NCBI GenBank assembly: GCA_036169915.1
Contig: JAVHOF010000087.1
Coordinates: forward strand, 1 to 43,809
Direction of reading: 5' to 3'
Source: Candidatus Pacearchaeota archaeon
Lineage (GTDB): Archaea; Nanobdellota; Nanobdellia; Pacearchaeales; GW2011-AR1
Length of the DNA: 43,809 bases
The notes beneath the pieces are model-generated. The model ran no database searches. It saw only the letters and a list, made by a program, of their open reading frames with translations, and had not been told where the DNA came from. Both the position numbers and the translations under genes were made by a program. Positions 1 through 36,646 of the stretch are shown here, piece by piece; positions within the stretch are counted from its first letter, which is position 1, and every line of letters starts with the position of its first letter.

Positions 1-456
1 GATATCAACCAGAATTGTCTCTTCATCAAAGGAAATTATGTCCGTATTTATTTTTGAGAAATATGGAATGCCTTTATGTGTAACTCCTTTTTTATCGTCG
101 AATGAAATTGAGTCGCCTCCATTTTTAAAAGCGAGAACTGTGTTTTCTTGACTAATAACCAACAACTCCAATTTTCTTGATTCATCCGCCAGATTCATCC
201 GAGCCTCTGTTTCCAAGGTATTGCGGCCATTGGTTCTTTTGGTATCAATTACCGATTTTTCTGAAATCAGGTCATCAAGTTTTTTTTGTTCCTTTATTAC
301 AACAGCATTTTTTGCCTTCACCATCGCCTCACGAAGTTCTGAAAAATCATCAGGAGTCAACTTGCTCAGAAATTCATGCGCGAGTTCTTCGTGTGATTTT
401 TTCACATCACCGCCAGTGTCAAAATGCCTGATGAATTTTATTTGTGGATCAATCAT
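1..456 (-). CDS. 5' part of a protein with [F]xxGG motifs; runs off the left edge
   Basis: Not in the ORF track. Manual translation from ATG at 456 gives MIDPQIKFIRHFDTGGDVKK...AFKNGGDSISF... with no stop down to position 1. Confidence 0.85.
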   Translation of the reverse strand, partial: MIDPQIKFIRHFDTGGDVKKSHEELAHEFLSKLTPDDFSELREAMVKAKNAVVIKEQKKLDDLISEKSVIDTKRTNGRNTLETEARMNLADESRKLELLVISQENTVLAFKNGGDSISFDDKKGVTHKGIPYFSKINTDIISFDEETILVDI

Positions 457-487
457 GATGTTTTTTTACGTTTTCAAAGTTTTGCAC

Positions 488-495
488 TATATTTG
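488..495 (+). promoter_or_regulatory. Bacteroidota-type -7 promoter element TATATTTG
   Basis: Matches TAnnTTTG and lies immediately upstream of hairpin unit 1. Confidence 0.55.
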
Positions 496-500
496 TAGTG

Positions 501-570
501 TGTTTGATTGATTGAGTAACCTCAGCGGAATGGGACTGCTGCTTGCTCTACCAATCAAACGTTTTATTTT
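501..570 (+). ncRNA. Candidate structured small RNA, copy 1
   Basis: Stems 502-510/552-560, 514-519/543-548 and 523-528/536-541; loop AAUGGGA; followed by a U-rich tract; G-U pairs favour the + strand. Confidence 0.6.
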
Positions 571-614
571 CCACACTACCACCATCTTTCTTTTTTTCAA
601 AATTTTATGGTAAC

Positions 615-622
615 TACATTTG
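615..622 (+). promoter_or_regulatory. Bacteroidota-type -7 promoter element TACATTTG
   Basis: Matches TAnnTTTG and lies immediately upstream of hairpin unit 2. Confidence 0.55.
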
Positions 623-624
623 TG

Positions 625-692
625 TGCTTGATTAGTTTTGTAACGTCGGCGCAATTGGAGCGCCGTTTACTTAACCAATCAAGCATTTTTTT
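625..692 (+). ncRNA. Candidate structured small RNA, copy 2
   Basis: Stems 625-633/677-685, 640-643/667-670 and 647-652/660-665; loop AAUUGGA; followed by U7; same architecture as copy 1 with compensatory changes. Confidence 0.6.
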
Positions 693-3043
693 CATACGCC
701 AAAGATCATTTTCAATACTGGGTTTCCTGTTATGCCATGGTTAGAATTAATGCTTCCTCCCTTTTCAAAATACTGATCCATTAATTTTGCGGTTGGCCTG
801 ATCCATACTTCATTCGAATCAATTGGGTTTTCTGAAACTCTTATAAAATGATTGTCGATGGCCTGTTGGATTCCCTCCATGCGAGCTTCGTGCTTTGGAT
901 TATCCTTAAGAAAAGTCTTGCGTTGAATCTTTCCGTCTTTCATGTATTGGACAAAATCCTTACTGTGTCCTGTTAATTCTGAAATATCACAGCCATTCTC
1001 CATCTTATCAATTTTTTCAGTCAACATCTTTACCTCAAAATTTGCTGAATTCAAATCGGCATTGCTCTTTGCATTTCTTACGCGAAGTCTTGCATCCGAT
1101 AATTCCTTTTTCAATTCTGACATGATCAAATCAGCAATTCCGCCACCGGTTTCCATTTTATCTTCTGAAACCAACTTCCATTCGCCTTGTTTGATATATT
1201 TGTCAACCTTTTCTTTCCCAAAAGGATGATATCCACCAGTTCCACCAAAATTAGTAAACCAATACTCATCACCTTTTATTTCGCGAAGAAACAACCCTTT
1301 CCCAACAGCATTCAAAACTTTATCTCCAACATTTAATCCATTGAATGAATCAAGTCTTTTCCAGTCAACTCCTCCTCCTGTTTCCATTTTATTTGATAAT
1401 TTTAAAACAAGTTTATCAGAAACTTCTCGTGGTAATTTTGTTTTATATCCAGATGCCTGAATATAAACTGTGGCCGTTGGATATTTTGAATAATCTTCAA
1501 TGAATTTATCTGTGTCGGCTTCCCCATATGAAAAACTTACGTTTTCAGAAAGTGTGTCCGATTGGTTTTTAAGCAGAATCGGCTTATTGAATCTTGGAAG
1601 AAAATATTCCGTAACCTTCTCCAGAAATTTTCCCCATGTTTCACCTTTAAACAAGGCGCCTGTAACTTTTTTATCCAATATTTCTCCGCCACGTTCCATT
1701 TTATTTTCAGAAAGCCATTTGTCTAATCCCAGTTTTACTTTTTCATACATCTTCCTATATTTTCCTCCTTTATCATCCCTTGAATTGAATTTATGAAAAT
1801 ATTCTTCACCTTCTTTGCTTATTCCATAACCATAATTACCAACAATAGATTCCGCCATTGCCAATCTATATTTCTCTCCATTAAATTCAAAATCTATATC
1901 ACCGGTATTTTCCCCTCTTTTTGTAATGTGGTATCCTATTATTTTGATATTGCCGACTGCGCCTCCTTGCTCCATTTTATCGGAAAACACACCCGCTCCG
2001 TCCAAATAATATACCAAGTATTCTTCCGGCGTCACATTGAACTTATCGGCGCCTTCGTCAATCAATTGTATTATTTCTTCAGCCGATTCCCCTTGTGCAA
2101 AATATGGATTGTTGTGTGGATGGTTTACGGCAACATAAGGCAATCCCCTGTTGATTTCCACAAGAGGCGCCATTCCTTTTTTATCTTCCACATTATAATA
2201 TTCTTTCTTGATTTTTTTAAATGTTCCAAGAATATTTGATTTTATTTCTCCGCCAGTTGCCATTTTGGTTGTATTATTAAATTTTTCAAATTCAATTGCA
2301 TTCAATTGCCATATGGTTCTGAAAGCAATGTCCTGTTTGTTGTAAGTGTTTGTTTCCTTCAATAAATTTCCATCCTTATCATAAACCCTTATGTGGAAAT
2401 CAGGGCTGTAATGATTTTCTGTTGTGGCTGATTTTCTTTTTTCATCCTTCACATCAACTTTGTATTCGTCAATGAGAAATGTTTTTTCTCGGCCAATTGG
2501 ATCAGAAAAGTCCGTCTTGAAATATTCAATCATGTTGATTCCAAAATCGTGATTATCGTGGTATTTGGCAGCATATTCATTCTTCTCGGGGTTGCTGATT
2601 TTATCCTTCATGTCCGGGAGATGCTTGAAGAAAAATTCCTTTTCAACATATTCAGAAACCAATCTTCCCCTTTTTGAATCGACCTCAATGTTGATTTGTC
2701 CCGATGGCAGATTTTCAATGTTAAGAATTCCGGCTTTGTCCTTTAAATTCTTATTAACCTTGTTTCTGATTGCAACAGCTTCCTTGAAATTATTTTCAGT
2801 TGACATGAATTCCAAACTGTTTCCAATGCCCGACAATGTTTTTGCACAATCCATTCCAACACGCGCCTCTTTCCCTTCAGCGGATTCTATGACAGCTACG
2901 TTTGCAATCAGCTTTCCGCAGTTGTCACATATCTGTGGATTTTCCATGATGCCACCGGTGTAATATGCATCGGTGATTTTATAAGTTGTGTTGATCGGAA
3001 GATTTCTCCGTACAACTTTTTTTATTTTTTTTTCGTCGCTCAT
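692..3043 (-). CDS. Modular 783-aa protein segmented by KMExGG motifs; putative virion-internal or polyvalent protein
   Basis: N-terminal CxxC...VGMDC Zn motif; motifs KMATGG, KMEQGG, KMERGG, KMETGG (x2), KMENGC, FEKGG; C-terminus GNPVLKMIFGV. The function is inferred. Confidence 0.8.
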   Translation of the reverse strand: MSDEKKIKKVVRRNLPINTTYKITDAYYTGGIMENPQICDNCGKLIANVAVIESAEGKEARVGMDCAKTLSGIGNSLEFMSTENNFKEAVAIRNKVNKNLKDKAGILNIENLPSGQINIEVDSKRGRLVSEYVEKEFFFKHLPDMKDKISNPEKNEYAAKYHDNHDFGINMIEYFKTDFSDPIGREKTFLIDEYKVDVKDEKRKSATTENHYSPDFHIRVYDKDGNLLKETNTYNKQDIAFRTIWQLNAIEFEKFNNTTKMATGGEIKSNILGTFKKIKKEYYNVEDKKGMAPLVEINRGLPYVAVNHPHNNPYFAQGESAEEIIQLIDEGADKFNVTPEEYLVYYLDGAGVFSDKMEQGGAVGNIKIIGYHITKRGENTGDIDFEFNGEKYRLAMAESIVGNYGYGISKEGEEYFHKFNSRDDKGGKYRKMYEKVKLGLDKWLSENKMERGGEILDKKVTGALFKGETWGKFLEKVTEYFLPRFNKPILLKNQSDTLSENVSFSYGEADTDKFIEDYSKYPTATVYIQASGYKTKLPREVSDKLVLKLSNKMETGGGVDWKRLDSFNGLNVGDKVLNAVGKGLFLREIKGDEYWFTNFGGTGGYHPFGKEKVDKYIKQGEWKLVSEDKMETGGGIADLIMSELKKELSDARLRVRNAKSNADLNSANFEVKMLTEKIDKMENGCDISELTGHSKDFVQYMKDGKIQRKTFLKDNPKHEARMEGIQQAIDNHFIRVSENPIDSNEVWIRPTAKLMDQYFEKGGSINSNHGITGNPVLKMIFGV

Positions 3044-4296
3044 ACTCCAAAAATTGTTTTAAGAATTGCGTTTCCGAAAAATTCATTTGAGGTTGATTCA
3101 ATACCCCCGCCTTTTCCAAATGCTTTATTGTAAAAGCCCTTGATTCTCATTTGATGTGGCTCCTGATACATTATTATCTTGTTTCCAGATTCATCATAAT
3201 GCCCGAAATTAATATGCCATTGTGGTTTAAATGCCGTCCATGGCTTTTCCTTTATTCCAAAAACCCTGCCCAGCGTATTTCCTTGTGACACTAATTTGCC
3301 GATGCGCACCAATTCTTCTTGCGGAATTTCATCATCAAAATTCTTTTCCAACTCATACGGCGGATGATACCCTTTTGTCCTGCCTTCAGATATCTGCTCT
3401 CCAACTTTCATAAATAGCGAGGCGTCACTTATGGCGCGATTAATATCATCATAGTCGAATTTACGTTTGTTATCCCGATATATTTTTGACCATTTTTTTG
3501 CGATGGAAGAAAGTTTTGGGCTCAATGTGGTATAATCTCCCTGAGAAAGGTGAATCAAATACTGAAGTTGCCCTGCCTTCGAATATTGCCTTGGCTCATA
3601 TGCATTAAGATTCATTGATTGATATGTTATCTGCCTTTTTTCATTGGCCGTCAATGAATCCATATCAAAATTTTCCAAGTCTTCCTTGAGGCTTGTTTTT
3701 GGAATGATTGCCCCGCCTTGTTCCATTATGCTTTCCGGAAATACATAAAGCCTTATGTATGAAATATCCTGCATTGCCCTTATAAATCTGCTTATGCGCT
3801 CAATGCCAACATTTTCAAGTCCAAAAATATTTTCTTTGTCAAACACTTCTGCACGATTGATGAAAATTGTTATCCATTTTTCTTCGAAAGATTGCTGGCC
3901 TAAATGTTTTTTTGAAGTGATTGACTTAATTATCCATTCCGATATTTGTTCAAAATAATAATCAAGGTTTTTTTCTATATCCTTCTCGGCTTGATATTCA
4001 ATGACATAAAAATAATCATATTCGTCTTTTGTCGGAGTGGTAATAAAGAATGACATTTGTCCATTGGTATATGCCGTGCAGAATATGGTAATTCCCCCTT
4101 TTGACAACTTGTACATCTTTCCACTTTTCCATTCCTTGTTGAAATCTTTTCCCTTTGAGATCGGAAAGATGCAATGATGGTATATTGTGGAAACAAATTT
4201 TGACAGATGATCAATATCAACAATCCGCATTTCCTCGTGATCAAGCAGGTGGTAATATTTCTGTTCGTCGATAGGAATTATTTCATTGTTTTTCAT
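3040..4296 (-). CDS. GG-motif protein with the shared C-terminal tail
   Basis: Start moved from 4341 to ATG 4296 because of the ATGA overlap with the upstream gene. Contains MEQGG and FGKGG; ends GNAILKTIFGV. Confidence 0.8.
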   Translation of the reverse strand: MKNNEIIPIDEQKYYHLLDHEEMRIVDIDHLSKFVSTIYHHCIFPISKGKDFNKEWKSGKMYKLSKGGITIFCTAYTNGQMSFFITTPTKDEYDYFYVIEYQAEKDIEKNLDYYFEQISEWIIKSITSKKHLGQQSFEEKWITIFINRAEVFDKENIFGLENVGIERISRFIRAMQDISYIRLYVFPESIMEQGGAIIPKTSLKEDLENFDMDSLTANEKRQITYQSMNLNAYEPRQYSKAGQLQYLIHLSQGDYTTLSPKLSSIAKKWSKIYRDNKRKFDYDDINRAISDASLFMKVGEQISEGRTKGYHPPYELEKNFDDEIPQEELVRIGKLVSQGNTLGRVFGIKEKPWTAFKPQWHINFGHYDESGNKIIMYQEPHQMRIKGFYNKAFGKGGGIESTSNEFFGNAILKTIFGV

Positions 4297-4982
4297 ACTC
4301 CAAGTATTAGTCTGAGAATTGGATTTCCATAAACACCGCATTGCGCAACTTCGTTCACATTAACAACAACTGCCCCACCTGAATTATATCCCGGCATTTG
4401 TGAAATGCTTATCGGAACCATCAGTCCAGCCGACTCAATGATTATCCTTGCTTCAGCCGGTGACATTCTTCCAGCTGCTATCGCCTCGTTGTATTTGGAT
4501 GCAAGCATTGCCTGCTCAACTGCAATCTTATGTTCGTTTGGCGCAGCAGCTTCCTGCGTTGCATCCCATTTTTCATTCAATTTATGGCGCTGGAACATCA
4601 GGTATTCGCGAACGGTCATCATCCATGGTTCCGTTTTGGGATTGCCCATCAAGTCATTTCCAGCTATTGATCCGCCATACCTGAACTCTGTTGGTGTGCC
4701 ATCGGGATTTGTTGCGATGGGAACACCATTTCCACCTTGGGTGTTTATCTGGCTTAGCACCTGTGCATTGGTGCCGGTGTATGTGTGGATTTCCGGATCG
4801 GCAACATTCGTCTTGTTGATGATCACCTCTTTCCCTTCGAGAAGAACGGGTTTGTTATTGTCGGTTACAACAACCGCCTGAATTCCACCGGATGGTGCGC
4901 TATGGGCATCGCCCTTCAGCATCCCGCCCTGTTTTCCGTCACTGGTTTGTGTTGTTGCCAGTGTTGGTTCTGTATTCGCCAT
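4293..4982 (-). CDS. GG-motif protein with the shared C-terminal tail; phage structural or cargo-like
   Basis: GGMLKGDAHS..GGI...LEGKEVIINK segment resembles the G-x-SH-x-x-GG...EGxE-x-IIN motif I recall from phage virion proteins; also FRYGG and YNSGG; ends GNPILRLILGV. Confidence 0.75.
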   Translation of the reverse strand: MANTEPTLATTQTSDGKQGGMLKGDAHSAPSGGIQAVVVTDNNKPVLLEGKEVIINKTNVADPEIHTYTGTNAQVLSQINTQGGNGVPIATNPDGTPTEFRYGGSIAGNDLMGNPKTEPWMMTVREYLMFQRHKLNEKWDATQEAAAPNEHKIAVEQAMLASKYNEAIAAGRMSPAEARIIIESAGLMVPISISQMPGYNSGGAVVVNVNEVAQCGVYGNPILRLILGV

Positions 4983-5035
4983 GGGGTTAAAATTTTATTT
5001 TTTTTTCTTGGTTATATTAAAATACAACTTTCAAT

Positions 5036-5200
5036 TTACGGTGCAACGGCATAGGTTATCATTGTTGCTTTAAGAATGTTGCTTTTGGAGAATATCCCGA
5101 CCGCAATGAAAACAACGCCGATGCCGATCATTATTCCGGAAAGCGCCTTTCCCGGCAATGACGCCTCGAAGTGTTTCAACTCATCGACAAAAGAAGACAT
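5036..5200 (-). CDS. Small 54-aa single-TM membrane protein
   Basis: Manual translation: MSSFVDELKHFEASLPGKALSGIMIGIGVVFIAVGIFSKSNILKATMITYAVAP*. Confidence 0.65.
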   Translation of the reverse strand: MSSFVDELKHFEASLPGKALSGIMIGIGVVFIAVGIFSKSNILKATMITYAVAP

Positions 5201-7797: not shown

Positions 7798-8856
7798 CTA
7801 ATAGGTTATTCCTTCATATGTATTTGGCTTGTCATTTTTTTTCTCTTCAATGATTTCAACAATAGGCTCGACTGCAACATTTGTTTCAGGAACTACAATT
7901 GGTTCAACAACCGGTTCATCCTGTAACTGTAGTTTCTTCGGTACCTGACTTCCGGTTAATTCAGGAAGCACTGGTGCAACCGGCGCAGAAATGATTTCCA
8001 TGAACTTTCGTGCACGTTCAAAATAAGTGTGGTTTGCCTTTGCCCTTTTGTGTCCGGCTTCCGCAATTGCAAACGCCTCTTCTGGGTGCGATAGGTAATA
8101 ATGGCACTTTCTCAACAAGTCCTCTTCACCATTATATTCGATGATTTCCGCCCCTATTTCAAAAAGCGTTGCAAGCCCATTCGTGAAGTTGGTAAGCAAC
8201 AGGGTTCCGCATCCGCATGTTTCGAAAGTGCGGTAGTTGATATCCTTGTTTATATTGAAATTGAAGTGTATCAGATAGGAATTAACCGCCCTTACCATAT
8301 CATCCCCGATAACGAAAATGTCTTTCCTTATCCCGAACTTTTCTCCAAGCAATGCTACAGCCGCATCCCGGATTCCATGGCCTTCACTTCCACAGAAACC
8401 AAGTCCAAAATCCTTATGTATCGATTCGATCGGGAACATGAGACTGTCATCATATGCATTTGGAAACCATTCAGACTTAACCTTCATTTCATGAAAGGCG
8501 CCAACACAATCGATGTTGCTGTTTAGCACAACCTGTATTCCATGGTCGGTGACAAATTTCTTGTGCTTGTCCAGAACCATGTGTCCGTCGATTGACCAGA
8601 ACACCTTTAATATATCCGATGGAATTGTATCGAACTTCGGAATCCAATCCATTTCGTAATTTTCAAGAACAAGGATTGTTGAATAATCCTTAACCATTTC
8701 CGCGAATGGGGTGTTGTAAGTTTCGAAACCTTTTCCCCAGATTCCACATGGGATGTTTAGTTTATCGAATGCACGTTTCATGCAAAGGCATTCGCGATAG
8801 TTCCAATTCTTTTCGTGATGGCCGGCGGCCTGAATGATAAGTATTCCTTTTTCCAT
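7798..8856 (-). CDS. Glycosyltransferase, CgeB/YkvP-like (Glyco_trans_1_2)
   Basis: WFPNAYD, FCGS, INYRTFETCGCGTLLLT, IAEAGHKRAKANHTY..R; Pro/Val/Glu-rich C-terminal tail. Confidence 0.85.
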   Translation of the reverse strand: MEKGILIIQAAGHHEKNWNYRECLCMKRAFDKLNIPCGIWGKGFETYNTPFAEMVKDYSTILVLENYEMDWIPKFDTIPSDILKVFWSIDGHMVLDKHKKFVTDHGIQVVLNSNIDCVGAFHEMKVKSEWFPNAYDDSLMFPIESIHKDFGLGFCGSEGHGIRDAAVALLGEKFGIRKDIFVIGDDMVRAVNSYLIHFNFNINKDINYRTFETCGCGTLLLTNFTNGLATLFEIGAEIIEYNGEEDLLRKCHYYLSHPEEAFAIAEAGHKRAKANHTYFERARKFMEIISAPVAPVLPELTGSQVPKKLQLQDEPVVEPIVVPETNVAVEPIVEIIEEKKNDKPNTYEGITY

Positions 8857-8891
8857 TAGTGATTTGTAATGATGTATTTGTTAATCCTGAA

Positions 8892-9440
8892 TTATTTTGT
8901 TGAGACGTGATCTTTCAATGTGCTTCCATGGCCGCGTTCTGAAACCCAATCTCTTGTTTTATGTCGCCAACGACCATCTTCAAATGAATAGTCGGATATT
9001 CTTTCAAGTCCAACTACACCATGCGCGTATGCGTGATCTCCTAATTTTTCACCGGATTTCTCGTTTTGAATTGTTTCAAAGACTCCGTAAAACCTATGAC
9101 CCATTTTTTTCCGATTATATTTTGGTGCCCACCTTGATCCGCCATAAGCATAGTGCTTATCCCATAATTCCAAAACATAATTATGGTCTTGTGACGGAGC
9201 AACCTTGGTGACGCAATTTGGAGCAACTCGATATAGTGTTCTGTTTCCTTGATCCTCCATCATGTAGCATTCAAATATAGCTAGGAAAGGAATAGTCCAT
9301 TTTGGTTTTGATTGCATATGCGCTAAATCCATGTATGAATCGCGCCATCTACTTGCTTCTTCTTCATCCCAAATACGTGACGGCATGCCAGCACTTACAT
9401 ATACACTGTGCAGTTCTTCTGAAATATTCCCCATTGACAA
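8892..9440 (-). CDS. Hypothetical protein
   Basis: 182-aa ORF tiled in the operon. Confidence 0.6.
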   Translation of the reverse strand: MSMGNISEELHSVYVSAGMPSRIWDEEEASRWRDSYMDLAHMQSKPKWTIPFLAIFECYMMEDQGNRTLYRVAPNCVTKVAPSQDHNYVLELWDKHYAYGGSRWAPKYNRKKMGHRFYGVFETIQNEKSGEKLGDHAYAHGVVGLERISDYSFEDGRWRHKTRDWVSERGHGSTLKDHVSTK

Positions 9441-26224: not shown

Positions 26225-28864
26225 TTAGGTATTTGTTTTGTTGATGATTCGGTTTACAATGTCACAAACGAATTTTATTTCTTCTTCAGTGAGTGACTGG
26301 TGATTGGGCAAATAACACCCGTATTCATCGGCCTTGTTTGCAAATGGCAAATCTTTTTTACCAAATAATTTCTCATAAAATGGATGAAGGCCAATATTCC
26401 CGCTGATCAATGGCCGCACTTCCACATTGTTTCCACGTAGCGCTTCAACGATTTCATCCAGCTTCGGGGAGATCAATGGATAGCCAAGATTTGAAGTCAC
26501 ACAATTTTCCCGCTCAACCGGTTTCCAGTAATCATTTTCAATAAGGGAATTGTACAGAAGGAAATTCCTGTGCCTTTTCTCAATGAACGATCCCAATTTA
26601 TCCAGCTGCCGCAATCCCAAGAAAGCGCCAATCTCATTGTTGCGGAAATTAAATCCATCTGTATGGAAACGGTAAAGCTGATTGAACTTTGTGGTTCCCT
26701 GAATCTTCCTTAACTCCCTTCTTTTTTCCTCGCTGATATCGCGATCCCATCCGTGGCTTCTTTTCATCTTCAGGATATTGAAATAGCTCTCGTCATCAGT
26801 GGTGATCATTCCACCTTCCACAGTAGAGTTATGCAAACAGATAGGTTGTTGCCCCCCGATAAAATTTTCATGAATAGGCACAGAAAAATCATACACATAT
26901 TCATAATCAGGCACTATTTCTTCTATGCTCTTTACCTGCAAAAGTGTTAAGTCTCCATATTTTAATTTTTGCGCTCCAATGCTATTGGATAAATATTCTT
27001 TTTGTTTTAATAGTTCAACAAATTTTTTCTTCCCTGTTTTTTTTAATTTTTCACTATAATATGGAACTTCAAATGTTTCTTTTTCTGCTAATGATGAATG
27101 ATAGCAATTTTTGTCAACTTTTAATATTTTTCCGTCCTTTGTTAATTCGACATTATACATCCTAAAAGACCTTACACCTTTTGAATGTGATAAGTTTTTA
27201 TTATTATTAATTCTAAATGTTTTCTCTTTGTTGGTTTGGACAATTGACCCCCTTACGCCAAACATAGATAACATATAAGATACATCGTTAATTAAATCAT
27301 ATGATATACTTGCTACGCTTAATCTATTTTTATAAAAAGTTCCATCACCACAAAAGTAAGCGTATAGGAATGCCAATTTGCATTCATCGTTAAATTTCCA
27401 AACCATGTCTGGTATTCTCTTGTTTTTAGCCCCCCTTTTTATTCCTAGAAATGATTCAAAAAAATATTGAATCGTGGCAGACGAAATGAGCAGTATGATT
27501 ACATTACCTTTATTTGAAAGAGATGTTTCGAGCCCGAATGTTTTTTCAACTATGTCACATACATCATTTATGTATTCATGTTCGTCTTTATGAAATACCA
27601 GAGCGAGCCCAGCTTCAGAATAGCAACCTTCTGCTAAAAAATACCCAATCAGCCTAGATAATTCAATAGTAACAGGAACATATAATGGCAAATATTTATT
27701 ATTTGGAGTACGTTTATAAGCGATTCTAAGAGACTCTGTTTTTTTTGTTAAATATTTTAATGGCAAAACGCCCCTTGCTTTATAATTATCTATTTGTCTC
27801 CTGTGTGGGCTTCTACAAGTACCCCTAGGAGCATTTTTTAAATTATCCTTATCGTAATTTATGACGAAGAATTTATCTTCGTCCTTTTTGCAGAACGAAT
27901 AAAAGTCCAATGTCTCAATAATGTCTGGAGGAGTCGGTATTCTTTTTGGGACAACTATATAATCACCCTTTTTTATTTCTATACCAGTTTTTGCGGTTAT
28001 TTTTAAAGAAGAATCGCAAACAGAAAACACACTATGGTCTTCTGTTATTTCAACTGTTCGGTTATTTCTTAAAGTTATCCTGAATATTTTTTTTTCTAAA
28101 TCTATCTTATGTTTTATTATTGCAGAAGGCTTGGCGAATAATGTTTTATTATTTTCATTATTAAATGAAATCACCTTTATCTTTTCTGGCGTTTTTTGGT
28201 ATTTGTCAAATATCTCAGAGATTGGGTATATTTTGTATGTTCCATTTTCATCAATAAATGGAATCGGAGTTTTTGGAGCAACACTTGTAATATGGCCATA
28301 GTAGCTACTGCACGTTGCCATCAGCGCATAATTTTCAATTCTGCGCGCATTAAAGGTCGATCCCTGCGATTCGCAACCATCGAGTAATAGTGTCACGCCA
28401 TATTTTGCACACAACCCACTGATCGCATCCATATCCGGAACCATTCCCAATACGGAAACCAAAAACAATCCGGCAGGTTTTTCCTTCTTGAAAATGTCTT
28501 CGAGATTATTCAATTCAACACTGAGATCGGAAAGGTTGACGTCACAAAGAATCGGTTCCAATCCCAATTGTATGATCGGGGAAATTGTTGTGATCCATGC
28601 AATCCCGGGAATGACAACCTTTTTATTCTTCAACCCGCCATCTGAAATCAATGTTGAGATCGCAAGAAGATTTGCGCTTGATCCCGAGTTTACGAAAACA
28701 GCGTATTTGCTTCCAACATTGGCAGCATATTTTTCCTCATACTCAACCGTGAGTTTTGATTTTGTAAGCTGTGGTGTTGGGTCTTGTTGAAGCCATGCGC
28801 AAAGTGCGTCAATGTCAGATTTATCAATTGTATCGGAAGCGAGCTTGATTGGTAACTGAGCCAT
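26225..28864 (-). CDS. colD: DegT/DnrJ-family PLP enzyme, ColD-like GDP-4-keto-6-deoxymannose 3-dehydratase, containing an intein
   Basis: VNSGSSANL, W.T, D.CES.G, RSHGWDR; the spliced motif SSYYGHITSTVEGGM has His at the usual Lys position; extein 393 aa. Confidence 0.85.
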   Translation of the reverse strand: MAQLPIKLASDTIDKSDIDALCAWLQQDPTPQLTKSKLTVEYEEKYAANVGSKYAVFVNSGSSANLLAISTLISDGGLKNKKVVIPGIAWITTISPIIQLGLEPILCDVNLSDLSVELNNLEDIFKKEKPAGLFLVSVLGMVPDMDAISGLCAKYGVTLLLDGCESQGSTFNARRIENYALMATCSSYYGHITSVAPKTPIPFIDENGTYKIYPISEIFDKYQKTPEKIKVISFNNENNKTLFAKPSAIIKHKIDLEKKIFRITLRNNRTVEITEDHSVFSVCDSSLKITAKTGIEIKKGDYIVVPKRIPTPPDIIETLDFYSFCKKDEDKFFVINYDKDNLKNAPRGTCRSPHRRQIDNYKARGVLPLKYLTKKTESLRIAYKRTPNNKYLPLYVPVTIELSRLIGYFLAEGCYSEAGLALVFHKDEHEYINDVCDIVEKTFGLETSLSNKGNVIILLISSATIQYFFESFLGIKRGAKNKRIPDMVWKFNDECKLAFLYAYFCGDGTFYKNRLSVASISYDLINDVSYMLSMFGVRGSIVQTNKEKTFRINNNKNLSHSKGVRSFRMYNVELTKDGKILKVDKNCYHSSLAEKETFEVPYYSEKLKKTGKKKFVELLKQKEYLSNSIGAQKLKYGDLTLLQVKSIEEIVPDYEYVYDFSVPIHENFIGGQQPICLHNSTVEGGMITTDDESYFNILKMKRSHGWDRDISEEKRRELRKIQGTTKFNQLYRFHTDGFNFRNNEIGAFLGLRQLDKLGSFIEKRHRNFLLYNSLIENDYWKPVERENCVTSNLGYPLISPKLDEIVEALRGNNVEVRPLISGNIGLHPFYEKLFGKKDLPFANKADEYGCYLPNHQSLTEEEIKFVCDIVNRIINKTNT
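26828..28285 (-). mobile_element. Intein (486 aa) with LAGLIDADG endonuclease
   Basis: N-terminal SVAPKTP; block B ITEDHSV; LIGYFLAEG and FLYAYFCGDG; C-terminal YVYDFSVP.HENF...CLHN followed by +1 Ser. Confidence 0.93.
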
Positions 28865-35810: not shown

Positions 35811-36053
35811 TTATTTAAGTATTTCAGTATTTGCATTGTGACTCATGCTAATCACTTCACAATCATATTTATTTTCAATAGCAGAAGTTATTATATCATA
35901 TACTGCCCTTAATTCATAACTGCCTTCCTTGGCATTCACAAACTTATTCTCTATTTGCACAGTCCCATATTGCAATCCCGCAATTGGACGCCCTTCTTTT
36001 TCTGCCGTATAAGTTACTTTGATCGTTTTCATTGTCATTTTCATTTTATGCAA
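35811..36053 (-). CDS. Hypothetical protein
   Basis: Tiled ORF. Confidence 0.55.
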   Translation of the reverse strand: MHKMKMTMKTIKVTYTAEKEGRPIAGLQYGTVQIENKFVNAKEGSYELRAVYDIITSAIENKYDCEVISMSHNANTEILK

Positions 36054-36646
36054 AATATTTTTTTCGTGAATTCGTGTTTCTGTATGTTGGAAACAATATC
36101 AGGATCAAACCCATTCCAACTTTCCCTTACCTGTACATTGAAATTAACATGATTCCCCTCGTGGAAATCCTTATGATCGAGATTCACCGTGATGAAAACA
36201 CATTCTCCCTTGCTTCGTGAAGTGATTTCAGATTTTATTTTTTCAAAAATGGCACGGTCACCATCCTTTACAAAGGCGAGTATTGTTAGGAACACAATTG
36301 GATTTCCGGATTCAAGCAAATCAAAAAAGCGCTTGAACCTGCGGATATATTTTTTTGTCACTTCATCAATGGAATAACCCTCGTTGAAATCATGGGGAAA
36401 CCATGTGTTGTCTTCCACGCTTCGCTTTGTTGTAAGATCGATGTTGTTGATATAATTTGTAAGGTATTCTTCCAGACCCTCTTTTGGCAACTTCACGAAT
36501 TTCAGTATTGATCCCGGGTCAATGTCGATCCAGTCAAACGGATAAGAGTTTGTGCGCTTGTGAAAAACATCACTGATGATGGATGCGCTGTTGCATCGTG
36601 CGCCCAGTGAAACGTAATGCGTGTTTTCAGGATTGACTGTCTCCAT
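36041..36646 (-). CDS. DUF1796-like putative papain-like peptidase
   Basis: VSLG..C, YPFDW, FPHDF, KY.RR..RF. Confidence 0.75.
   Translation of the reverse strand: METVNPENTHYVSLGARCNSASIISDVFHKRTNSYPFDWIDIDPGSILKFVKLPKEGLEEYLTNYINNIDLTTKRSVEDNTWFPHDFNEGYSIDEVTKKYIRRFKRFFDLLESGNPIVFLTILAFVKDGDRAIFEKIKSEITSRSKGECVFITVNLDHKDFHEGNHVNFNVQVRESWNGFDPDIVSNIQKHEFTKKIFCIK

Follow-up and report, generated by a model that had tools for sequence, protein, structure and literature searches.

The window analysed here is a whole contig of 43,809 bp (C87; 38% guanine plus cytosine, GC) with nearly all of its genes on the minus strand. Its first 4,982 nucleotides hold four adjacent minus-strand genes, encoding proteins that we call p229, p433, p783 and p152, in which a short peptide ending in Gly-Gly, [MFY]xxGG, recurs at module borders and beside short end-peptides. 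This junction peptide is probably the place where multi-part phage proteins are cut or handled. p229 (4293..4982; 229 amino acids, aa), the first gene of the set, encodes an N-terminal starter domain (aa 12–95, 4698..4949), two junction motifs (FRYGG at 4665–4685 and YNSGG at 4368–4388) and a C-terminal tail, GNPILRLILGV (4296–4328). p433 (3040..4341) is listed as an open reading frame (ORF) of 433 aa with short repeats (D3/D5) at its gene ends; it carries MEQGG (3706–3726), FGKGG (3100–3120) and the tail GNAILKTIFGV (3043–3075). ATGA stop/start overlaps join the genes, the start of p433 lying on the upstream stop codon and its own stop on the start of p783, so codon 16 of the listed frame (position 4296), giving 418 aa, is the likelier start.

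The third gene, p783 (692..3043; 783 aa), comprises seven modules (aa 1–260, 266–356, 362–448, 454–552, 558–629, 635–680 and 686–758), and its joints read, in order, MATGG, MEQGG, MERGG, METGG, METGG, MENGC and FEKGG. Between junctions the blocks measure 91, 87, 99, 72, 46 and 73 aa, with a 260-aa N-terminal block before them and a 20-aa tail, ending GNPVLKMIFGV (695–727), after them. p152 (1..456; 152 aa) runs off the contig end and opens with a leader ending in FDTGG (403–423), followed by a second motif, FKNGG (109–129). All four genes would form one transcription unit of an uncultured tailed phage.

We counted 13 copies of [MFY]xxGG across the four proteins (1597 aa in total). The remaining minus-strand ORFs of 100 aa or more, 43 in number and 9774 aa long together, have 3, and when the four proteins were shuffled 5000 times the count averaged 1.17 and never exceeded 6. 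The motif is not simply as frequent here as in the rest of the proteome. The 12 intact copies and the degenerate MENGC listed in the original prediction are all present, and the flanking residues that it described also hold: x-[IV] follows 11 of the 13 copies, and Lys precedes 6 of the 7 junction copies in p783 (MENGC counted). In stop-to-stop segments genome-wide (596,168 residues), the stricter pattern [MFY]xxGGx[IV] occurs 49 times, 12 of them on this contig. A further copy beyond that list, YYTGG at aa 27 of p783, is a conserved in-domain motif of module 1 that reads FYTGG in free-standing homologues; lying inside the module 1 fold, it is not a junction.

The same peptide pervades the wider family. 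In a set of 83 related proteins (P0152–P0234, 98,148 aa), [MFYLWIV]xxGG occurs 829 times (8.4 per 1000 aa; mean 185 and maximum 214 in 200 shuffles), so that 829 of 1310 Gly-Gly pairs have a hydrophobic residue three places upstream. The family profile is K-[YFM]-[AEK]-[KDE]-G-G-[EK]-[IVL]; all 83 proteins have the Gly-Gly unchanged, with the class of residue maintained at positions −4, −3 and +2. Neighbouring motifs are separated by a median of 80 aa. Conservation over hundreds of junctions is what a sequence-specific processing or docking signal would predict. A passive linker would not account for a pattern of eight residues that stays the same at hundreds of junctions, leaders and tails: it needs a sequence-specific reader, either a protease or a binding partner.

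By sequence comparison, the modules of p783 are separable, independent units. A word-indexed search with p783 returned two relatives (P0002 and P0003) and a metagenome scan one locus (L002), while an exhaustive HMMER search of 1.84 billion representatives yielded 273 proteins at E ≤ 0.001, which match single blocks. Block 1 (aa 8–260) is found as free-standing proteins of ~230 aa, block 3 as a 92-aa protein, block 5 (aa 454–552) at 105–114 aa (P0034, P0036, P0045, P0052, P0087, P0100, P0110 and P0128) and block 8 as proteins of 80–100 aa; the same blocks are also found, differently ordered, within proteins as long as 2123 aa. Five of the at least seven blocks (modules 1, 3, 5, 6 and 8) have independent homologues elsewhere, and the free-standing homologues of modules 3, 5 and 8 do not have the motif. 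A three-way alignment shows module 1 opening p783 but coming after EMADGG in P0002 and after EMERGG in P0003; in P0002, which also has a VIDGNHRL stretch that is presumably ParB-like, module 3 directly follows module 1, and block 2 is absent.

Module edges and motifs largely coincide. Only 6 of 151 local domain hits to p783 cross a junction (4 at aa 261, 2 at aa 553 and none at the other five), and in fused homologues a motif lies within 15 aa of the module edge in 18 of 27 cases on the N-terminal side and 10 of 20 on the C-terminal side. Module 6 is bracketed by motifs in all four of its contexts (P0105, P0115, P0144 and p783). The proposal that the motif separates dissimilar modules is borne out by their independent occurrence, with blocks of 46–99 aa between junctions, and the suggested comparison of module order among relatives finds them reordered, free-standing or fused.

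The N-terminal ~100 aa of p229, the starter domain, has the consensus GGxLxGxxHSxxxGG[IV]...KPVELExxE[VI]IIN...ILSxIN..GNGVPI. It heads P0003, P0011–13, P0098 and most related polyvalent proteins, a type in which two to fifteen distinct domains share one phage or conjugative-element polypeptide, as the main text of Iyer et al. 2017 (PMC5512222) describes it. The starter-domain profile finds 89 proteins (E ≤ 1e-3) of 211–2000 aa, with domains that include ART-PolyVal, DUF5661, Zeta_toxin/AAA_33, DUF5824, Fic, ParBc and GNAT; the domain itself has no match in Pfam, PDB or crAss_CARG1. Some Pfam family is present in 12 of 21 large relatives (ART-PolyVal, LPD23, DUF5661, DUF3140, N6 methylase/Eco57I, sliding-clamp-like and MutS_I), and LPD1 and Zeta-toxin-like modules also occur among the homologues. 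Judged by their architecture and relatives, the four proteins are probably polyvalent proteins of the type in that paper: p783 likewise strings together many small unrelated domains, one of them modelled as a compact domain, and the relatives carry domains from the network of the family (ART-PolyVal, LPD1, LPD23, methylase, MutS_I and ParB-like), while the window proteins match no Pfam family.

Pfam gave no match for any of the four proteins even at E ≤ 1, PDB sequence searches with p229 and p783 returned nothing significant, and p433 had no homologue in the locally searched protein sets. Module 1 loci numbered none in the viral and genome contig sets and one in the metagenome contigs. Against 50,697 phage records, megablast of positions 1–5200 and tblastn of p783 found nothing, and the relative P0210 had partial single-domain matches in only 3 of the cultured-phage records. 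In the Protein Atlas, the best score for p229 was 0.88, a lead only; one row at 0.84 is a lead to crAss001 cargo protein 1 (PF25725), the presumed particle-carried cargo of an uncultured-type phage. PF25725 had no p229 match at E ≤ 1 and was silent in the bin holding the window and in five related viral genomes, its control being silent too. No module of the window has a known fold or family, and as a set they offer candidates for host-takeover factors.

The motif also joins short peptides to protein ends. p229, p433 and p783 share the terminal tail GN[PA][IV]L[KR]xI[FL]GV, 15–28 residues past the last motif. All seven tails found have a preceding motif, and among 2164 stop-ended segments of the loci the tail pattern has 4 distinct cases, each with a motif in the last 45 aa. 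Two ART proteins of locus L027 end in R-YNKGG-ITESGTPDYLKFLIG, and a kinase-like protein of locus L024 starts with MKNKINYSEF-YENGG and ends in MENGG-DVTPCCPDYVRLLFKW; both tails are of the same class as that of the window. Other relatives end, after the last motif, in ...IMxxQFGxxx or ...EFKPITTPL. Leaders of 16–18 aa ending in the motif open p152 (16 aa) and the module 1 protein of L002 (5877–6713), and the L024 gene at 8370–9305 also has a short leader of this kind. The motif is present, then, even on single-domain proteins, and at both ends.

We modelled module 5 of p783 (aa 454–552, 1388..1684) within aa 436–575 with AlphaFold, using 13 sequences (mean predicted local distance difference test, pLDDT, 79.5). 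It is a compact alpha/beta domain in the model, with a confident core at aa 457–555 (pLDDT 87–96 over the core). The upstream motif lies in coil (pLDDT ~60), and at the downstream motif K-M-E closes the last helix and Gly-Gly opens a stretch below pLDDT 50. Both motifs flanking module 5 are placed outside the core by this model; they are not buried within a folded domain, the arrangement that would have spoken against the original prediction. Foldseek with this model found nothing at E ≤ 0.001, and the best VIA-align match, ERH (Z 5.3), is not distinctive. Folded without an alignment, p783 gave an unusable model (pLDDT 36.9).

Sequence matches mark p152 as the probable start of a zincin (HExxH) peptidase protein that is cut by the contig end. 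Its aa 102–151 match aa 89–138 of a 654-aa HExxH protein of L027 (52% over 48 aa), and its aa 12–150 match internal units of P0180 (1061–1205) and P0160 (925–1068) at E ~1e-17 and also the start of P0029. Four p152 relatives reach an HExxH ~330–470 aa further on (FAHELAHFID, ILAHEVAHWID, MAHEIAHFID), with KISHTG upstream and ECFAR downstream in L027_654, L022_833, P0180, P0160 and P0029. The phage-type MPTase zincin described by Iyer et al. 2017 (PMC5512222), in its main text, has an Asp three residues after HExxH and a conserved His upstream, and was proposed there as a processing enzyme; the AHE..H..D and KISHTG/ECFAR of the p152 relatives fit that description. The phage-type MPTase family (PF18818) is further marked by a Glu helix downstream. 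In L022, L023 and L027, a zincin gene with 0–1 motifs lies between two giants with 6–26 motifs, and the L022/L023 form carries LPD1. The pattern HExxH occurs in 16 of 105 large relatives, but 13 of these are the THEQWH of an ART domain and only 3 are zincins. A predicted complex of the L027 zincin domain with a 63-aa two-motif peptide and zinc scored 0.00 in a run without controls, and weighs neither way.

The protease classes named in the original prediction (CE clan, C39 and prohead) found no support. The search covered five related viral genomes, of which four reach 90% completeness or more. Peptidase_C48 of the CE clan (PF02902) was in none of the five (control found in 1 of 14 genomes; PF00770 was not searched), nor was Peptidase_C39 (PF03412; control found in 7 of 14), Peptidase_S78 (PF04586) or MPTase-PolyVal (PF18818). 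The T4-type S77 family (PF03420) gave one 19.9-bit hit below the cut-off, on contig C85, and none on the window, and a general family scan found no CE-clan family among 37 window ORFs. The fourth gene instead appears to begin a zincin protein.

Our favoured reading, to which we give somewhat less than an even chance, is that the junction peptide is a protease recognition site, at which cuts release the modules and trim off the peptides that form leader and tail, the tail serving as a packaging signal. Cargo chains would be carried in the particle, into which the hydrophobic C-terminal tail would take them, and would be sent into the host with the DNA. A dedicated protease would recognise K-[YFM]-[AEK]-x-G-G-x-[IVL] at the module borders and cut the chains, during assembly or after injection; the zincin is the leading candidate where it is present, and elsewhere another phage or host protease may act. 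We favour cutting because the modules are autonomous, the motif connects the chains to end-peptides that look like signals, some family members have a peptidase fused to them or encoded next door, as among polyvalent proteins generally, and phages T5 and lambda trim their first-ejected protein beside a similar peptide.

In T5, the tape-measure protein pb2 is cut after R1127, according to the main account of Linares et al. 2023 (PMC10038345); at this cut, the only one mapped in a tape-measure protein, the T5 record reads ...SFVPR|AEGGMMYPGV. Lambda gpH becomes gpH* by losing ~14 kDa from its Gly-rich C-terminal region, with neither site nor enzyme identified in the account given in PMC12617516, and it carries FATGG at aa 733, YATGG at aa 778 and MRDGG at aa 842 of 853. 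In both phages, the virion protein that is first to exit through the tail is cleaved within or next to an A-E-G-G or [FY]-A-T-G-G peptide, freeing an enzyme-bearing C-terminal piece, and this resembles the junction of the window; there is, however, one cut per protein, against a string of junctions in p783. Homology of the starter domain to the C-termini of gpH and pb2, suggested by eye from GE-x-[VI]-[VI]-x-K-E-A, found no support (hhalign probability 0.7% and 0.1%). T4 gp21 and phiKZ gp175 process packaged internal or ejected head proteins at short consensus sites. They resemble the proposed system in their many sites and in targeting peptides removed after packaging, and differ in a Glu-ending consensus and in being assemblin-type serine proteases.

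Several findings weigh against cutting. Cleavage products have been observed for no member of the family. Among the inter-motif gaps, 179 of 746 are shorter than 30 aa, too short for a domain, and 10 of the 83 relatives end 2–3 residues past the last motif (for example, ...SGGTI and ...QGGFI), where a cut would remove almost nothing. The window is without a complete protease, p152 ending ahead of HExxH. A zincin profile detects the enzyme in 2 of the 5 related viral genomes and misses G001 and G004, which are rated 100% complete and encode motif-rich proteins; zincins account for just 3 of the 105 proteins of 400 aa or more that were retrieved; and the L027 zincin scores below the Pfam cut-off for MPTase-PolyVal (13.5 versus 27.5 bits). 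The T5 cut follows an Arg, not an aromatic residue, three residues ahead of Gly-Gly, which makes the parallel a loose one. Finally, although they have an MPTase, the N4 virion RNA polymerase, ArdC and TraC1 are delivered intact, according to the main text of Iyer et al. (PMC5512222).

The last of these observations, together with the motifs at the extreme C-terminus and the zincin-free complete genomes, is also what an uncut docking tag would explain, an alternative that we consider possible but unlikely. Here, junction peptide and tail would bind a component of the particle or a loading factor, the strings would be packed and released whole, and additional copies would add avidity. The motif lies within 30 aa of the C-terminus in 17 further relatives of the 83, tandem copies occur 5–8 aa apart, and its presence at both ends of single-domain proteins likewise suits a handle. 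A MoxR-type AAA_5 ATPase follows a motif-rich gene in five loci where the zincin is absent (L013, L015, L020, L024 and L026), with a DUF7192 protein next in L015, L020 and L026; the two may be a machine that loads or unfolds the cargo. However, a handle need not sit exactly at every module border, the free-standing homologues manage without one, the motif lies in a low-confidence linker of the model rather than on a defined surface, and no binding partner has been identified.

Rather doubtful, and a little less probable again, is a two-part code that combines loading with cutting. A terminal tail of the [IV][LM]xx[IQ]FG class, or a leader, would load the string into the particle, and the Gly-Gly junction would be the cut site, at which these signals are taken off and each module is set free, as in T5 and lambda trimming, whether by a protease or by self-cleavage.

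It is improbable that the motif is a passive hinge kept by descent, that is, a helix-capping flexible joint that is read by nothing and is shuffled with the modules by recombination at similar coding sequence. Modules are inserted and deleted exactly at the motif, the KMExGG sites share ~67–75% of 32 nucleotides (repeat family D1), and in the module 5 model K-M-E ends the last helix and Gly-Gly breaks it, all of which a hinge would explain. Yet the Gly-Gly codons vary from site to site, which suggests that the protein, and not a DNA repeat, is under selection, and Gly-Gly stays invariant, with the residue class kept at −4, −3 and +2 over 83 proteins, although the DNA must differ. Ordinary linkers are less constant, and the motif also follows short leaders and precedes short tails, where there are not two domains to join. 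The idea in the original prediction that a short DNA repeat drives module shuffling is weakened by the same codon variation and by flanking residues that vary across relatives around an invariant Gly-Gly.

The adenovirus protease cuts at (M/L/I)xGG-x and pS273R of African swine fever virus (ASFV) at GG-x, both in virion polyproteins. Cutting directly after Gly-Gly by a CE-clan, C39 or prohead protease, the form in which processing was originally proposed, is very improbable, for while Gly-Gly with an upstream hydrophobic residue resembles these sites and the window encodes a DUF1796 'putative papain-like peptidase' (36041–36646), the CE-clan, C39 and S78 profiles gave 0 of 5 genomes, S77 gave only the sub-threshold hit on C85, the DUF1796 gene sits in a sugar-enzyme cluster and is not among the ORFs of the motif-rich contigs C21 and C64, and the hydrophobic residue is fifth before the putative cut here but fourth in the quoted consensus, one place further from Gly-Gly. 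The eukaryotic viruses are alike in having a Gly-Gly site in virion polyproteins and differ in clan, spacing and hosts. C39 double-glycine leaders have a counterpart in the short leaders that the motif terminates, but the majority of motifs lie within the chains. Substrates of HK97- and T4-type prohead proteases would call for S78 or S77, the former found in none of the five related genomes and the latter not on C87.

Polyvalent proteins and their presumed processing by a zincin are known already (Iyer et al. 2017, PMC5512222, main text); a word search of that text, supplements aside, finds no mention of glycine linkers or boundaries. The junction peptide appears to be new, as do the starter domain and the class of tail, in that the papers searched gave no description of them. 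Polyvalent proteins are thought to be a main vehicle for the counter-defence enzymes of phages; that they are processed has been proposed, although the site has never been pinpointed. A junction defined by sequence is a concrete hypothesis that can be tested by mutation, offers a way to split giant orphan proteins into functional units, and connects these proteins with the trimming, so far unexplained, of the tape-measure proteins of T5 and lambda. If the two-part code is true, the cut products of hundreds of uncharacterized polyvalent proteins would be predictable from sequence.

The contig belongs to a bin of 212 contigs and 1.56 Mb (83.8% completeness, 2.1% contamination), in which most contigs have 28–29% GC. 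Outside the four-gene set, the window encodes two HNH endonucleases and, in a large block, glycosyltransferases and enzymes that modify sugars; no tRNA was found in it, and general family scans of its proteins recognised no structural gene. The block is ~36 kb of single-strand glycan genes (7000–43800) that include several glycosyltransferase families, epimerases/dehydratases, aminotransferases, a dehydroquinate-synthase-like protein, WbqC-like and SIS proteins, methyltransferases and the DUF1796 protein. Within its sugar-biosynthesis cluster, an 879-aa DegT/DnrJ-type aminotransferase (26225–28864) is split by an intein that contains a LAGLIDADG homing endonuclease (Pfam Intein_splicing 207–679). 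With 38% GC, the sugar-enzyme block, the HNH endonucleases and the intein, the contig therefore looks like a piece of some large phage, placed by the binning with a host to which it is unrelated. Related viral contigs likewise have a glycosyltransferase cluster directly upstream of the polyvalent genes, and a LAGLIDADG intein interrupts the AAA_5 ATPase of L015 and L020.

Motif-rich proteins are also encoded on three other contigs (C21, C64 and C126, with loci L003–L008), which differ in GC (43%, 32% and 27%), so the bin contains several different phages with this protein type. C21 has a 485-aa ORF with four motifs and a tail, METGGSVISSHNGIFNNTVLKSIFGF, like that of the window proteins. On C64, a 2118-aa SNF2/methylase giant matching DarB-like PHROGs adjoins a motif-bearing DUF5661 giant, and C126 is one 674-aa open frame carrying FEKGG, YKHGG and MNKGG.

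The 235-nucleotide gap between p783 and p152 contains two related elements of ~71 nucleotides each (495..696, minus strand; 73% identical), both of which fold into long hairpins on the gene strand (−22.4 and −31.7 kcal/mol; z −4.7 and −8.6). Possible identities are terminators, sites of processing and a small mobile repeat. In a related 70-kb genome rated complete (G005, loci L028–L031), the presumed late region consists of many ORFs of 100–250 aa, and the terminase-like match is a 278-aa ORF covering the C-terminal half of the family only; stop-codon recoding was rejected as the cause of the short ORFs, since readthrough of TAG or TGA gave no longer frames. Lastly, the related metagenome contig of L002 carries, beside lysis genes and polyvalent genes, a 419-aa TnpB-like ORF (3122–4381; IS200/IS605 family, assigned by eye).

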